A DNA stretch of 62,708 nt, the filler included, from Diploschistes diacapsis (lineage: Eukaryota), in assembly GCA_023645945.1 (NCBI GenBank). It is 9 parts of 9 records of this genome, joined end to end, with 100 filler letters (N's around TTAATTAATTAA, not from the genome) between each part and the next. Parts side by side here need not be neighbours in the genome. Positions count along the whole stretch, not along the records: positions 1 to 24,110 come from JALAIB010000247.1; 8 more parts are not named here. One strand, written 5' to 3'. The notes beneath the pieces were generated by a model, which was given only the letters and a program-made list of their open reading frames with translations, did not search any database and was not told the origin of the DNA. Position numbers and translations under genes: made by a program. Shown here one piece after another: positions 3,700 through 61,469 of the stretch. The stretch's first letter is position 1, and each line of letters opens with the position of its first letter.

Positions 3700-3788
3700 G
3701 AAGTTCCACACCACGGCATCATATGCTTAAAGAATTGTGAGCCCTCTTTCGACATAGCAACACCCAACTCAACGCGTCGTCAGATACC

Positions 3789-4963
3789 ATGCCTACCCGC
3801 TTCTCGAAGACGAGGAAGCAGTAAGTGATGCCGATATTTGTAATTGGCCTGGCTAATCTTACGAATAGTCGAGGTCATGTCTCAGCAGGACAGTAAGCGC
3901 ACATCCCATGAGGGCATCAGTCTCTAGTCTTCGACCGGCTGTCGGATTCCTACTTCGTTTCAACAATACTGTCGAATACTACGGGAGCTCTCGCTGGTTG
4001 TTCCAAAGATTTACGACAACGAAATCGCCTATACTTCTGGACGTTAGGACTCAAAGCGAAAGCCCTCAAAATGCGACATTGTATGGGATATTCGCCTTAC
4101 CTAATTCAATGATCAGCCCACAAAGACTATCAGGGACTCTAGAGCTGCCGGATTAACGGCCAGCTCTGGCATAATTAGGAAGTATTTCATGGTACAACAC
4201 TATTGCTGGTGGTAGCCCGGAGTTCTTAACGCTTGGAAGGCGCATCTTGAACTTAGGCAATTCCTGCTAGCAATAGAAAACGTGGTTACTTTGCCGTGGC
4301 CGTGGCAGTCGGAGACTAGAAACTGATGCCTCTCCACACCGCTATCGTTGATGATCGCTGACGTTATCTACAGTGGCCGAGTGGGTAAACATAGGAAACA
4401 TCCAGGAGGTACTTCTTGCTCATCCTTATATAACACACCGAGAACCAAAGACTGACTATCTGGAAGGTGTCGGAATGGCCGGAGGCCAACACCACCATCG
4501 TACAAACTTGGACAAATACCACCCTGGTACGGACAGTGCTTCTGGTTCTCTCGAAGCTGCAAGGCTCATCATGGATTAGGTTACTTCGGAAAGGTCGGTA
4601 TGCGGTTCTTCCACAGACAAAAGAACCCTTTCTGGATGCCGGCGGTAAACCTGGACAAGGTATGTCCTTTGCGAAGTCGCTGCTAGAGAGATAGTCTGGA
4701 GGAGAGGGTAAAGCAGGCGCTAACATTTTATTTGCCGCTCACAGCTCTGGTCCCTCGTTCCCAGCGAAAAGCGTGAGGCCTATCTCTCCGACAAAAAGAG
4801 TGACACCGCACCCGTTCTCGACCTCGTCCCACTTGGATATGCAAAGGTTCTTGGCAAGGGCAGGATCCCTGAGGTTCCCATTGTCGTAAGGGCGCGGTAC
4901 TTCAGCAAGGAGGCGGAGAGGAAAATCAAGGAGGCTGGAGGAGTTGTCGAGCTGGTACCGTGA
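3789..4963 (+). CDS. RPL28: 60S ribosomal protein uL15 (L27a/L28), 6 exons
   Basis: Spliced translation [62 protein letters not shown]...LWSLVP...[39 protein letters not shown]. Five GT-AG introns; the second (~3893-4372) is ~480 nt. Confidence 0.95.
4100..4283 (+). ncRNA. Candidate intronic H/ACA-like snoRNA or structured RNA in RPL28 intron 2
   Basis: Hairpin 1: CCTAATT 4100-4106 / AATTAGG 4173-4179, with inner AGAGCTG-CCG / CGG-CAGCTCT. ANANNA box ACAACA at 4194-4199. Hairpin 2: CTATTGCTGG 4200-4209 / CTAGCAATAG 4267-4276, followed by AAA (ACA-box variant). No rRNA target identified. Confidence 0.45.
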
Positions 4964-5350: not shown

Positions 5351-6788
5351 CTATACCTCCAACCCATCGTCCTCAAGATCCACCTTCAAGAAATCATGCT
5401 GCAGCGCCTCGCCTGCCGAGATCCTCCTCTTGGGATCCAAATCCAGACACCTCTCCAAGAACTTAATCGCCAGCATCTCGCCATACTCTAGCTTCTCTGA
5501 CCTCTCCTGCCCCTCGTCCCCGTTCCCCGTCCGGCACGTCGACCACAGGATCAGCTTCTCGAACGGAAACCCCTTCTCGCCCACCGTCGGGATCGTGCAG
5601 TCGAAGACGCTCCCGTGCAGCAGCGCGCACGCGCTCATCCGCCGCTTGCCGAAGATGGAGGTGATCTCGATCATGGCGTCGATGTCGTCGCTCGAGTTGA
5701 AAAAGGGGAAGCGCTGCGACAGCATGGTCAGCAGGATCACGCCCACGGACCAGACGTCGATCTTGGTCGTCTGCGACGTGCATTTGAGCAGGACTTCGGG
5801 CGCGCGGAAGCCGCGGGTGCCGGCGCGGTTGGCGCGGCGCGAGGGCCGCGTGTCGTTCTTGGGGAAGGCGGCGACGGCGGGGGGGTGCTTTGCGGCGTAG
5901 GAGTTTTCGATCTTGGTGCGGCGCCGCGTCGAGGTCTCGGTGCAGACGCAGTAGGACGTGTCGGTGCCCTCGCGCTCGGCGAGGCCGAAGTCGACGAGCA
6001 CGCCCTGCTCGCGGTGGACGTCGTAGAGGAAGTTGGTGGGCTTGATGTCGCGGTGGATGATGCCGGCTTTGTGCACGGCTTCGAGGGCGGTGAAGAGCGA
6101 GGTCAGGTAGGCTTGCATGTCGCGCGGGTCCATGCGGCGGAAGTACTCACGGAAGTCTTGGTGCTTGTAGTAGGGAAGGACGGCGACGACTTGGTCTTGG
6201 TAGCGGAAGGCGGTGATGAGGGGGCATATTGAGCTGGAGTCTCGCAGATCGTGGAGGAGCTCGAGTTCGTTGAGGATTCGGGATGGGCTGCTGGTCACGT
6301 AGATTTTCTTGATTGCGACGAAGCGGCTCTTGCTTCGTTGTGGTGCCTGGGTTCTGTCCACTGGTGAGGAAACCCAAGGCTTGGTATCCTCAAATTCTGG
6401 GTCCCAGTCGTTCTGGTGCTGCTGGTACAGGAGGTCTTCTGCTTTGTATACTGTTGAGAAAGTCCCTGGATGGCAACGTGTCAGAGAAGAATCACAGATC
6501 TGAGGGCAGCGCGTTACCTTCTCCGATCCTGTCAATCAAGCGATACTGCTTAGTAAGGTCGTTGAAAGATTCTTCGAACCTAGCAATATCGTCTAGAACC
6601 GACCGCGGAACAAGTGTATGATGTGTTTCCGATGAATCATCGCTAATCTGTTCGTCGACGCTCATAGCATCATCATCTTGCACGACTTCCTGGTGGTTCG
6701 CTCGTGTAACGTTCTGCGGAACATCTTCTAGCACGTTGAAGGGACTAGGTTCGCCAGTGGGAACCTTCATGGCTCTTGCTCTAGCCAT
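5351..6788 (-). CDS. CDC7: Cdc7/Hsk1 DDK serine/threonine kinase
   Basis: IGEG/TFSTVYKA, VAIKKIYVTSSPSRI, HRDIKPTNFLY, LVDFGLA, and the Cdc7-diagnostic RANRAGTRGFRAPEVLLKC. Intron at 6466-6517. Confidence 0.95.
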
Positions 6789-24110: not shown

Positions 24111-24210
24111 NNNNNNNNNNNNNNNNNNNNNNNNNNNNNNNNNNNNNNNNNNNNTTAATTAATTAANNNNNNNNNNNNNNNNNNNNNNNNNNNNNNNNNN
24201 NNNNNNNNNN
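24111..24210. other. Artificial assembly gap spacer N44-TTAATTAATTAA-N44
   Basis: The same spacer recurs near 26173, 28234, 30294, 32353, 34411, 58597 and 60653. It is a stop-in-all-frames linker. Confidence 0.95.
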
Positions 24211-25800: not shown

Positions 25801-26363
25801 GATTTCTTATTGAAAACTCCTTTTATGTGGGCCCGCGGCCTTGGCGCGATGTTAGAACTAAGGTTTTCCGTTCGCCCGAAAAACTGTTATAAATATCTAT
25901 TATAATTATCTTTTTCTTTCTTAATTCTAGATTTTTAGAACCGTTGTTTACGTTTATTTAAAGATTCCCGTAGAGGTCCCGATATATTCCCGTTAATTCC
26001 GCGGAAGCGTAACGGATATAAATCCGTTATTAAACGGGAAACTTGCCGGCACGGCCTCGATCAATTGATATACGGGTCGATGTCGGTTTCTAAATATACG
26101 GGACGCGGGTGTGAATCACGTATATCTATAGGTTATAATATATAGCAGTTTTATAAAATAAATATGCTAATANNNNNNNNNNNNNNNNNNNNNNNNNNNN
26201 NNNNNNNNNNNNNNNNTTAATTAATTAANNNNNNNNNNNNNNNNNNNNNNNNNNNNNNNNNNNNNNNNNNNNCCCGCGTTCGTGTCCGTACTAATTACCG
26301 GGAAACGTAATTTCAATAAACGATTAAACGTAATAAAGCAAGTATAAATCCGGGTTTATAACC

Positions 26364-27978: not shown

Positions 27979-28594
27979 ATTTTCGAAATCGTTTTTTTAA
28001 TTTTCGCGATATTCATTATAATTATATCGAATTTCGATATTATTTAAAATAATATAAACTTAACCGTCGATAACGATCGTTCGATTATATTATTTAAAAT
28101 ATTTATTTTAAAAAAATATTTAAACACTACAAGTTTTATTTTTATAAAATAGACACGAGATATTAATTAAAATAAATTTAATCTCGTATAAAAGAAGAGT
28201 GTAAATATTAAAAAATTAATTATAAGTTTATACNNNNNNNNNNNNNNNNNNNNNNNNNNNNNNNNNNNNNNNNNNNNTTAATTAATTAANNNNNNNNNNN
28301 NNNNNNNNNNNNNNNNNNNNNNNNNNNNNNNNNTTTATAAATATTTCTAATTATTATTCGGGATTAATCTATATTCGTTATTTTTATTATTAAAGAACTT
28401 TCTTTCTAAAGATAGTTTAAGACCTATAACTACTCTATCTTCTTTTCCTGCCACATTCTTCTTCTAATAGAGACCAAACCTACCTCGATCCTACTCGTGT
28501 ATACCTTGTATAGATAGAGATCATAACAGGATACCGCAGCTAAAAAATCTAAAACACGGACACGGCCGTGTCAGTGTCAGTGACGGCCAGCCTA

Positions 28595-30293: not shown

Positions 30294-30416
30294 NNNNNNN
30301 NNNNNNNNNNNNNNNNNNNNNNNNNNNNNNNNNNNNNTTAATTAATTAANNNNNNNNNNNNNNNNNNNNNNNNNNNNNNNNNNNNNNNNNNNNCAAGCTC
30401 GCCAAATGGTTCAAAA

Positions 30417-31264
30417 TAGGCTGGCCGTTTCGTGCCACGGTCACTGACACGGACACTGCAGCAAAAATTTTCAAAACACGGACACTGACACGGACACGAC
30501 AGCTAAAATTTTAAAACACGGACACTAACACGGATACTACATTACAGTAAAAGCACGGACACGGATACTATAATTAAAAATTTTAAAACATTAATATTAA
30601 TAAGGACACTGCACTTCCGTAAATCCACGGACACGGAAACCGCAGCTAAAAAATCTAAAACACGGACACTAACACTGTCAATATCCGTGTCACTAACACG
30701 GCCGTGTCAGTGATACGGACACTGATAATATCAGTGTCCGTGTTTTAGATTTTTTAGCTTCGGTGTCCGTGTCCGTGGATTCACGGAAATGTAATGTTCG
30801 TATTAGTATTAATATTTTAAAATTTTTAATTATAATATCCGTGTTCGTGTTTTTATTATAATATAGTATCCGTGTTAGTGTCCGTATCGAAAAAATTTTT
30901 ATTACGGTGTTCGTGTCCGTGCATTTATCGAAACATTTTAAATTATTTTTTTAATTTTAATAATTCTAGAATTATCACGTTTATTTCTTACGCTTTTATT
31001 TTTTTAAAAAAATTTTATTACGGTGTTTCGGTAGATTTATTATAATGTTTCGGTGGATTTACGGAAATGTAGTGTCCGTGTTAATATTAATGTTTTAAAA
31101 TTTTTAATTATAATATCCGTGTCCGTGCTTTTATTGCAGTGTAGTGTCCGTGTCAGTATCCGTGTTTTAAAATTTTAGCTGTCGTGTCCGTGTCAGTGTC
31201 CGTGTTTTGAAAATTTTTGCTGTAGTGTCCGTGTCAGTGACCGTGGCACGAAACGGCCAGCCTA
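30417..31264. mobile_element. hAT-like non-autonomous foldback element with ~210-bp inverted arms
   Basis: TAGGCTGGCCGTTTCGTGCCACGGTCACTGACAC... at 30417 is the reverse complement of the sequence ending at 31264. Internal ACACGG/ACACTG hexamer arrays. Related ends at 28529-28594 and 58349-58596. Confidence 0.8.
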
Positions 31265-31600
31265 TTTTAAACTAAACGAAAACTAGCCGTCACCTACCAA
31301 AATTCTTTAAATCTACTGATTTCAAAGAATATGACCACATAACGCCTATATAACGTCGAAAAAACGTTTTTTTAATATTTTTACTGAAGTCTACGCATGA
31401 AACCGCTTATAATGATATATTTAAAAAACATATTTTTTACTGCGTTATAACCGAATTTGAAAGATAAAATAATACGTGTTTTCGAGTCATTATTTTTAAT
31501 TCGCTTTTAAAAAATAACTGCTGACATAATCAATGTGCACTTTCCGGGTATAATAGAAAATAGAATTGATAGTAATGTTTCGAAACAAAATCAAAATAAC

Positions 31601-32352: not shown

Positions 32353-32540
32353 NNNNNNNNNNNNNNNNNNNNNNNNNNNNNNNNNNNNNNNNNNNNTTAA
32401 TTAATTAANNNNNNNNNNNNNNNNNNNNNNNNNNNNNNNNNNNNNNNNNNNNGTAGATAATAAAAGTAAAGATTGCTTATATATTAATTAAACTTCTTAG
32501 TTACGAAAATAATATCTGGTTTAATATAAATTATTATATA

Positions 32541-34410: not shown

Positions 34411-34672
34411 NNNNNNNNNNNNNNNNNNNNNNNNNNNNNNNNNNNNNNNNNNNNTTAATTAATTAANNNNNNNNNNNNNNNNNNNNNNNNNNNNNNNNNN
34501 NNNNNNNNNNTTCCTCCACAGTCCATCCGCAACCCCCCCCGAAATGTCTAGGCCCCCAGCGCACATCTCTTCCAAAGCGGCCCTTCCCGTTCCCGTTCCC
34601 CATTTCGCCTCCGCTCCCTTTCCTATTCGCTGTCCCTCTTCCTACACGCTAAAGAACAACTCTGCCACATAC

Positions 34673-34904: not shown

Positions 34905-35034
34905 GATGGCGGAGAGGGCAGGAGGAGGAAGTATGTGGCAGTTATGGGATTCCCTATGGGTTTGAATGAAAGCGAGAGATGGCCAAAGTTCTGTGGTGGA
35001 TGTGGATGATTAGTAAGCCATTCAATCTAAGTTA

Positions 35035-35234
35035 ACGTGTTTCACCACACAACGGAACACACCACAAAGCGGAACACTACATTATAATGCAATCAAAAAA
35101 AGGCCGAAGAACGGGGTAGTGTAGTTGAGAGCAGATTTAGCTTCGTACAAATATGGAAGCGCTCGATCTAGCGCAATTACATTATAATGTAGTGTTCCGC
35201 TTGGTGGTGTGTTCCGTTGTGTGGTGGAACACGT
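35035..35234. mobile_element. 200-bp Tc1/pogo-type MITE with TA target duplication
   Basis: TA|ACGTGTTTCACCACACAACGGAACAC...GTGTTCCGTTGTGTGGTGGAACACGT|TA, with ~58-bp imperfect TIRs. Confidence 0.88.
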
Positions 35235-35564
35235 TATATTCTCTGATGTCCCCAAAGCTACCAGTTTTCCCAGGTTGCAGTTTCTTTTTACTTTACCAGT
35301 ACGGTCGCCATCAAATCTTGTTCTGGCTGTCTCTATTTGTGCTAAATTATATGGCTACTAACACACGGCATGGCTCTGTCATATCATATCATGATCTCGG
35401 CTCTATTTAAAACGTTTCCGCCTCGTCGAAAGAGCGCGGAACATGTGCGAATTTATGGCCATCTCTTGATCTAACTGGTTGACTTCTGTTTTCTTACAAA
35501 AACAACGCAGGAGTTAGTAAAGTATATAGCAGCATCTTCTTCCGCAACCTGAAGGCCGACCACC

Positions 35565-58596: not shown

Positions 58597-58696
58597 NNNN
58601 NNNNNNNNNNNNNNNNNNNNNNNNNNNNNNNNNNNNNNNNTTAATTAATTAANNNNNNNNNNNNNNNNNNNNNNNNNNNNNNNNNNNNNNNNNNNN

Positions 58697-60652: not shown

Positions 60653-60734
60653 NNNNNNNNNNNNNNNNNNNNNNNNNNNNNNNNNNNNNNNNNNNNTTAA
60701 TTAATTAANNNNNNNNNNNNNNNNNNNNNNNNNN

Positions 60735-60963
60735 NNNNNNNNNNNNNNNNNNTAACGTCTTTCCCCAGGAAACGGAACACCCCACGAAGCGGAACACTAC
60801 ATTATAATGTAATTACGCTAGATAGTTTTAAGCGAGCTTTTGAGCTCCATAACCACACATAAAATTATATGTACGAAACTAAATCTATTTTCAATTACAT
60901 TATAACAAGGTGTAGGGTTTGTGTTCCGTCCCGTGTGGTATTCCGTTTCCTGGGGAAAGACGT
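60735..60963. mobile_element. MITE related to 35035-35234, in inverted orientation
   Basis: TA|ACGTCTTTCCCCAGGAAACGGAA...TTCCGTTTCCTGGGGAAAGACGT|TA. Shares GCGGAACACTACATTATAATGTAATT and the internal GTACGAA.CTAAATCT. Confidence 0.85.
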
Positions 60964-61469
60964 TATTTTAAAAGGTTCTAGAAGGTTCTAAAAGGTTCTA
61001 CATCGTTAGCCCGAAAAACGGATCAGGAGCTTGTGGTTTTCTGACTCTTGTTCTAGTATTGGCCCTTAGACTCACACAAGAGATCAGGGCGGATCATCAT
61101 TGCGCGCTGTTGAAGAGCCCGCTTCAAGCCCTTAGAGCTGTAGGTAGCTGCTCTTCTTTGGCGTTGGCATTGATACAATATCGGTTTAGCGCGCCGATAC
61201 GAGCATTTGAGAATCGGGGGTATAGGTTACCAAGAACACTCCTTCCAAGCTTCAGGTACTATAACTTCATTCTACCCCAAAGCCGAATGCTTATTGACAA
61301 TGCGAGCGCTCTGGTGCGCCTCTCGAAAGCTATGGTCTGCCCTGTCTAGCATCCAGCATATCCGGTAGCAGGTCATCGTGAAGCAAGTCATCGATGCTCG
61401 AAGAGGTATCGCCGCTTGGACAGATAATATGTATGTCATTCATGGTGATATCGGACCCTTTGCAATGTT

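Follow-up and report, generated by a model that had tools for sequence, protein, structure and literature searches.

A predicted long-range stem, putatively of the zipper type, closes an exceptionally long intron in the uL15 (RPL28) gene of a Diploschistes diacapsis assembly

Results

A stretch of 62,708 nucleotides (nt) from the Diploschistes diacapsis assembly GCA_023645945.1 (hereafter the window) contains a gene for ribosomal protein uL15 (RPL28/L27a), the second intron of which is exceptionally long and is predicted to be closed by a long-range RNA stem. The coding region is assembled from exons at 3789-3820, 3869-3892, 4374-4408, 4467-4526, 4580-4659, and 4745-4963, and the open reading frame (ORF) upstream of it is the end of an eIF3i gene. 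The spliced product of 149 amino acids (aa) was aligned with a comparison set of seven chosen fungal uL15 proteins, each of 149 aa. All seven alignments ran from end to end with no internal gaps, with identity at 119 to 125 of the 149 residues and at 36 to 42 of the first 45 alignment columns, which span the junction left by intron 2. Exon 6 matched the Pfam family Ribosomal_L27A (PF00828) with an E value of 4e-14. Intron 2 falls between the second and third bases of codon 19, which are nt 56 and 57 of the coding sequence (CDS). The five introns of the gene measure 48, 481, 58, 53, and 85 nt; an earlier note on this DNA had described intron 2 as about 480 nt long and unusual among its neighbors, and this description was borne out (481 nt versus 48 to 85 nt for the other four). 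The branch motifs of the short introns are of the CTRAY type, and the branch point of intron 2 was assigned from its CTGAC motif alone. The uL15 gene model is sound, and intron 2 is a length outlier within the gene.

The earlier note had also proposed that 26 nt near the start of intron 2 (3910-3935) pair with 27 nt near its end (4308-4334). This pairing was recovered at the same place, as part of a stem longer than the one described. An inverted-repeat search identified 3913-3935 and 4308-4330 as a 23-nt pair with 91% complementarity, which came first among 11 such long-range pairs in the 24-kb contig; the remaining ten were 72 to 88% complementary. In the minimum free energy (MFE) fold, the stem comprised 40 base pairs (bp; 35 Watson-Crick and 5 G-U) in six helices (3912-3960 with 4278-4331), with a single C-A mismatch at 3922/4321, and the register of the earlier note allows three additional outer pairs (GAG with CUC). 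The core of the stem accounts for 32 bp, and the inner extension brings it to 40 bp. The mean pair probability (P) of the core was 0.93 to 0.95 in all four folding contexts, namely the intron alone, the intron with its flanking exons, and two larger contexts, with flanks of exon or intron of 100 to 330 nt. A branch-point-like CTGAT lies buried within the 3' arm at 4323-4327.

The predicted stability of the stem was compared with that of shuffled sequence. Cofolding of the core arms (3910-3945 and 4294-4334) gave an energy of -52.4 kcal/mol. When the opening 80 nt of the intron were paired with the closing 110 nt, the duplex energy was -68.2 kcal/mol, compared with -34.9 +/- 6.1 kcal/mol for dinucleotide shuffles of that duplex, of which 0 in 1000 reached the observed value. 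Folding of the whole of intron 2 gave a z score of -4.26. In a seeded scan of the window by raw duplex energy, the stem ranked 16th of the 30 pairs listed, and the ranks above it included GC-rich coding sequence (5792/5985, in a kinase-like ORF) and repeat-rich pieces. Raw energy is therefore an unfair yardstick, and the shuffles and the inverted-repeat search were used. By these measures, the modeled long-range stem of intron 2 exceeds chance. The kinase-like ORF occupies 5351-6535 on the - strand and carries protein-kinase-like motifs; its GC-rich part (5790-5990) gives very low duplex energies from composition alone.

The position of the stem relative to the splice signals resembles that of the zipper stems of budding yeast. 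According to Rangan et al. (PMC12350175), a zipper stem is a high-confidence stem of at least 6 bp that extends from after the 5' splice site to before the branch point, with linkers of at least 10 nt and at least 20 nt that together measure 42 to 85 nt. The predicted stem of intron 2, at 32 to 40 bp and with the pair probabilities given above, is well beyond the minimum length. Its linkers are 17 nt from the donor to the stem (3893-3909) and 26 nt from the stem to the branch-point A (4335-4360), and their total of 43 nt is near the lower bound of the published range; in a more conservative register the linkers are 19 and 29 nt, for a total of 48 nt. In the other four introns, branch-like motifs occur at positions 36, 47, 42, and 64 from the intron start, and a linker total of 43 to 48 nt thus places the effective donor-to-branch distance of the 481-nt intron in the range of the others in the gene. 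This geometry is in keeping with the suggestion of the earlier note that the stem brings the donor next to the branch point. With the exons included in the fold, the branch motif (4358-4361) was predicted to be unpaired (P of 0.95 to 1.0) and the donor to be largely unpaired. A direct helix between donor and branch point (GUAAGCG with CGCUGAC) was rejected: it had a P of 0.7 to 0.9 when the intron was folded alone but of at most 0.02 with the exons, and 226 of 2000 shuffles contained one as good. We propose that a zipper stem closes intron 2 and makes its exceptional length spliceable, a reading to which we assign a probability of roughly 55%. The features of the locus are collected in Table 1.

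Table 1. Features of the uL15 gene and its second intron (positions along the window)
Feature	Positions	Strand	Basis or remarks
uL15 (RPL28/L27a) coding region, 6 exons and 5 introns	3789-4963	+	Spliced product, alignment, Pfam
Intron 2, 481 nt, GTAAGC...CTGAC...CTACAG	3893-4373	+	Gene model, protein alignment
5' splice site GTAAGC and 17-nt linker to the stem	3893-3909	+	Mostly unpaired once exons are folded in
Core stem, 5' arm	3910-3945	+	Fold, inverted repeat; unchanged in X2 and X3, both of which cover the arm
Inner extension of the 5' arm (helices 3952-3954 and 3956-3960)	3946-3960	+	Pair probabilities of 0.83 to 0.85
Weakly structured, variable interior arm	3961-4096	+	z = -0.99 (3962-4090); 13 of 24 interior variable sites
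Y-shaped interior arm with near-perfect hairpin 4139-4169 (hairpin 1)	4097-4183	+	z = -3.61 (arm), z = -6.03 (hairpin)
ACAACA, H-box candidate of the earlier note, fits ANANNA	4194-4199	+	Motif scan
Hairpin 2, 77 nt, with 11-bp base helix	4200-4276	+	z = -3.43 (4198-4280); P of 0.96 to 0.99 for most helices
Inner extension of the 3' arm	4278-4293	+	MFE fold
Core stem, 3' arm, with buried CTGAT	4294-4334	+	Fold, inverted repeat
26-nt linker and branch-point motif CTGAC (4358-4362, A at 4361)	4335-4362	+	Motif scan
3' splice site CAG	4371-4373	+	Gene model, protein alignment

To compare the stem with the rest of the intron, contigs from three other sequencing runs (X2, X3, and X4) were used, which are 95 to 99% like the window and each of which covers parts of the intron. 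All three carry intron 2, and no joint in them skips the intron or its 425-nt looped part. The tally comprised 28 substitution sites, with changes counted per covered run-nucleotides. The core arms (3910-3945 and 4294-4334) had 1 change in 161 run-nucleotides (1 unique variable site in 77), the whole rod (3893-3960 and 4278-4362) had 5 in 313 (3 in 153), and the interior (3961-4277) had 32 in 819 (24 in 317). Fisher tests gave a p of 0.03 for core versus interior and of 0.06 for rod versus interior, in runs that share ancestry and are unevenly covered. The sole change in the core arms, 4330 C>T in X4, turns a G-C pair into G-U and keeps the pair. Elsewhere in the rod, 3959 T>G, shared by X2, X3, and X4, disrupts a single pair in the innermost helix, and X2 carries a one-base insertion (C) after 4292, where the sequence is unpaired. 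The five G-U pairs of the stem against its one C-A mismatch, together with the finding that both arm-region transitions in the relatives give G-U on the sense strand, favor pairing at the RNA level on the + strand. The lower rate of change in the arms than in the interior is suggestive only.

The interior of the intron was also more structured than chance (z = -3.23 as a whole), a signal carried by two modules at 4097-4183 (z = -3.6) and 4198-4280 (z = -3.4). The remainder (3962-4090) had an unremarkable fold (z = -1.0) and was the most variable part of the interior. The elements that the earlier note had listed, namely an ACAACA word (4194-4199), the two hairpins (4139-4169 and 4200-4276), a run of A (4277-4281), and the CTGAC motif (4358-4362), were all found where it had placed them. 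Among the relatives, hairpin 1 is altered by 4150 G>A in X2 and by 4158 G>A in X3, each of which breaks a G-C pair near the loop, and the sole change in hairpin 2, 4252 C>T, turns a G-C pair into G-U.

Ribosomal-protein introns in fungi often host small nucleolar RNAs (snoRNAs), and the earlier note had read the interior as an H/ACA-like module, possibly an intronic snoRNA released via the closing stem. An intron far longer than its neighbors, two well-folded modules within 4097-4280 with an ANANNA word between them, and fewer variable sites in 4097-4280 than in 3961-4096 are what might be expected if intron 2 hosted a snoRNA (H/ACA or C/D) that is particular to this lineage and is processed once the intron has been excised. 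The details of the modules, however, do not conform to this expectation. In H/ACA snoRNAs, the pseudouridylation pockets lie about 14 to 16 nt upstream of the H or ACA box in each of two hairpins. Hairpin 1, a simple stem of 12 bp, has no internal loop to serve as a pocket and ends 25 nt before ACAACA, and changes in X2 and X3 disrupt its top pairs. In hairpin 2 the internal loops are unsuited, one lying 28 nt from the box and the other having only 2 + 4 nt. ACAACA fits an H box, and 4199 A>G in X3 removes its last A (in one contig, at a depth of 2.4). An H/ACA snoRNA has its ACA box 3 nt from the 3' end, immediately after the 3' hairpin, but hairpin 2 is followed by AAAA (4277-4281); the nearest downstream ACA (4336-4338) is found only past the stem arm, and in X4 it has become AGA. 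An alternative H/ACA layout (hairpin 4200-4276, AGAAAA, hairpin 4281-4335, and ACA at 4336) was rejected, as its second hairpin is weak (-15 kcal/mol) and competes with the -52 kcal/mol stem, and as the ACA at 4336 is changed in X4.

A script scan of the sense strand for C boxes (RUGAUGA) and D boxes (CUGA) found two C-like words, with one mismatch each, and two CTGA words, the pairings of which are 218 to 253 nt apart with terminal stems of 1 to 2 bp. Rfam returned no match at gathering score in the whole window (4227 families, both strands) and no ribosomal RNA in the window; at an E value of at most 10, the only match in 3780-4480 was a chance match to Antizyme_FSE (E = 1.5). Thus, the Rfam check proposed in the earlier note yielded no relevant family. 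Intronic H/ACA snoRNAs, such as yeast snR44 in RPS22B (named in PMC4937481), likewise reside in a ribosomal-protein intron and have two hairpins around an ANANNA word. Intron 2 departs from them in lacking both an ACA box and suitably spaced pockets, in matching no Rfam family, and in having boxes that are changed in relatives. With the C/D scan likewise yielding no box pair with a terminal stem, the H/ACA-like module of the earlier note was not sustained, and we regard a snoRNA in intron 2 as very improbable.

Several further observations concern the gene family and the remainder of the window. The nearest named uL15 proteins, by exon 6 (83 to 87% identical), belong to lichen-forming Lecanoromycetes and to Chaetothyriales. 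Together with the lichen-metagenome label of the sequencing run that contains the whole stretch, and with the short introns and their CTRAY motifs, this makes the host probably a member of the Pezizomycotina. Among the listed uL15 relatives of less than 200 aa, 42 measure 127 to 148 aa and 13 the full 149 aa; the short records may reflect tiny 5' exons missed by gene predictions. Fusions of uL15 with the CHL1 helicase in several Aspergillus, Trichophyton, and Onygenales records are probably merged neighboring genes. The window itself is a concatenation of nine pieces, with N runs that flank a TTAATTAATTAA-type linker at each junction (24111-24210, 26173-26272, 28234-28333, 30294-30393, 32353-32452, 34411-34510, 58597-58696, and 60653-60752), an arrangement that does not imply that the pieces are neighbors in the genome; the intron is in the first piece (1-24110), which matches a contig of 24,105 bases in run X1. 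On one short piece, at 30409-31272, long inverted repeats made up of CACGGACAC-like words are densely nested in an AT-rich setting, with arms of, for example, 226 nt at 93% and 197 nt at 85% complementarity; this region resembles a repeat element, a foldback element, or satellite-like sequence. Two other inverted repeats were seen, at 35033-35236 (61-nt arms, 95% complementary, 82 nt apart) and at 60753-60965 (45-nt arms, 89% complementary, 123 nt apart).

Discussion

The position, length, and predicted stability of the stem suggest a model in which a very stable long-range helix would form on the uL15 pre-mRNA and loop out about 370 to 420 nt of intron 2. The spliceosome would then meet a donor-to-branch spacing like that of the normal 48- to 85-nt introns of the gene, and the helix would serve as a structural splicing enhancer, or as a tolerance device, for an intron about 6 to 10 times the usual length. 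By analogy with budding-yeast zipper stems, we infer that the stem would form in vivo and that splicing efficiency would depend on it.

The zipper stems of Saccharomyces cerevisiae (RPS17B, RPL7A/B, RPS11A, and others; PMC12350175) likewise consist of a helix from just after the 5' splice site to just before the branch point, reside in long ribosomal-protein introns (400 to 500 nt in yeast), and are expected to shorten the effective donor-to-branch distance. The locus studied here differs in that its host is a filamentous-type ascomycete and a long intron is exceptional in this gene, whereas long introns are common in yeast ribosomal-protein genes. It also differs in that the predicted stem is very long and stable (32 to 40 bp, about -52 kcal/mol). 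A literature search met no example of a zipper stem from a filamentous or lichen-associated ascomycete, although one may still be in print.

Several observations weigh against the proposal that the stem is a zipper that aids splicing. Deletion in silico of 3910-4334 leaves a normal 56-nt intron, as expected of a foreign insertion. The antisense strand of the intron folds nearly as well as the sense strand (z = -3.82 versus -4.26), a symmetry that could be a legacy of the DNA level. Mutants of the zipper stem in yeast RPL28 are reported (PMC12350175) to have a lowered fraction of retained intron, which calls for caution in supposing that the stem simply aids splicing. No pair was changed on both sides among X2 to X4, at a divergence (about 1 to 7%) that is too low for a test of covariation. 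Finally, a search of metagenomes for orthologous introns with a degenerate pattern of exon 2 and donor returned 63 loci, 0 of 63 with uL15 motifs; these loci look like chance matches, mostly in GC-rich contigs.

The first two of these observations raise the question of how the intron acquired its stem. The stem may represent the inverted ends of an element of about 425 nt, of a kind like a miniature inverted-repeat transposable element, a foldback element, or an introner, that landed in an ordinary 56-nt intron. Under this explanation, the stem is tolerated since the insert is zipped away and has not been selected for any role; the explanation concerns origin and is compatible with a zipper mechanism. 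The 56-nt intron left by removal of the insert keeps its donor, CTGAC, and CAG, and the interior contains further near-perfect palindromes, such as 4139-4169 (z = -6.03). This clean excision and these palindromes, together with the antisense fold, make an inserted element with inverted ends a reasonable guess at the origin. The terminal inverted repeats themselves are present (23 nt, 91% complementary, and extending with bulges). Also consistent with a relic, 10 of the 16 changes in the relatives at MFE-paired interior positions break the pair and are uncompensated; in each of the other six, a transition to G-U keeps the pair. Filamentous fungi are known to have long, structured introns that proliferate, namely introner-like elements (PMC3609843) and symmetrical stwintrons, the latter with terminal inverted repeats of 45 to 55 nt (PMC8469720).

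Other features of the locus, however, are not those of a recognizable inserted element. No target-site duplication was found: the flanks read ...CCCAT and CACAC... on either side of the element, with no direct repeat by eye in three registers. The arm pattern, with up to three mismatches, matched only the two arms in the 62.7-kb window, so that no second copy is present there, and, apart from self matches and the arms, sensitive blastn of the window returned no more than two short and weak matches. In the likely source run, a single contig aligned to the stretch at a likeness of 80% or above, so that no group of related copies shows up there. No empty site was found in X2, X3, or X4, all of which carry the intron. 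Searches with the arm pattern in prokaryote genome contigs gave 25 loci with a single match each, none with both arms, which by our estimate is about the number expected by chance or fewer for a 17-mer in 596 billion bases; viral contigs gave 0 matches. The lower rate of change in the arms than in the interior among the relatives also argues against an unselected relic, as does the 5:1 excess of G-U over C-A, which favors pairing of the sense RNA.

Like the introner-like elements and stwintrons of Pezizomycotina (PMC3609843; PMC8469720), intron 2 is a long fungal intron with an unusually stable predicted structure. In the Hypoxylaceae introns, terminal inverted repeats could make the intron double-stranded, and flanking duplications are absent, as here. 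In contrast, those elements occur in scores to hundreds of near-identical copies, whereas intron 2 is a single copy in the sequence searched, and their repeats lie at the very ends of the intron, whereas the arms here are inset by 17 and 39 nt. We therefore consider an inserted-element origin possible but doubtful. Origin and present role are separate questions, and even a relic would act as a zipper.

The identity of the host gene may suggest a further role, offered as an alternative in the earlier note, in which excess uL15 would hold back splicing of its own transcript by binding a site that the intron forms, perhaps with exon sequence as well. The zipper stem would then be either an enhancer that is countered by uL15 or a scaffold that presents the binding site. 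Precedents come from budding yeast. The RPL28 intron of yeast is 511 nt long, and its structure includes a zipper stem, a further stem downstream, and a three-way junction (PMC12350175). Granas et al. (PMC13232506) report about 6-fold repression through the RPL28 intron and part of the coding region on induction of Rpl28. For RPL7B, the regulatory fold is bound by protein and cannot coexist with the zipper stem of that gene (bioRxiv 10.1101/2025.03.14.643126). Feedback by uL15 gains plausibility from the reported autoregulation of yeast RPL28 through its intron (PMC13232506).

Several features of the locus could accommodate such feedback. Retention of intron 2 would bring an in-frame stop at once (CAG TAA), for which decay is proposed, and the interior is more structured than chance, as noted above. 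The 5' arm also has alternative partners, one in exon 1 (3804-3814 with 3924-3934; 11 nt, 91%) and one in intron 3 (3917-3933 with 4439-4455; 17 nt, 76%) that includes the CTGAC of that intron. These alternative pairings are weak, however, and of the size expected by chance in 700 nt, and the exon change 3806 G>C in X3 would break the one with exon 1. The binding site of yeast Rpl28 is described as undefined in PMC13232506, which leaves no motif to compare. The same source places the yeast intron between CDS nt 49 and 50, against 56 and 57 here, and this difference of 7 nt leaves orthology of the two introns unproven. Intron 2 and the S. cerevisiae RPL28 intron are alike in gene family, length, putative or known zipper stem, long stems, and multi-way junction, and differ in position, and sequence similarity between them is not to be expected; the lowered intron retention of the yeast zipper mutants is a further point of difference. 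On balance, we consider autoregulation of this gene through intron 2 unlikely. A more general scheme, in which budding yeast and filamentous ascomycetes would share uL15 splicing feedback in principle, with the zipper aiding splicing, excess uL15 undoing or bypassing it, and the unspliced RNA decaying, appears to us more unlikely still.

If such feedback were true, autoregulation of ribosomal proteins at the level of splicing, so far shown in Saccharomyces, would extend to Pezizomycotina with otherwise short, unstructured introns, and the match in gene family with the autoregulated yeast RPL28 makes this a concrete and cheap hypothesis. For annotation, the locus indicates that great length in an intron of a ribosomal-protein gene is not by itself a sign of a resident snoRNA. 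Zipper stems have so far been defined and tested in budding yeast. If intron 2 is, as we propose, closed by a zipper stem, this 481-nt intron with the geometry of a short one would provide a clean natural test of whether donor-to-branch distance limits splicing in short-intron fungi.

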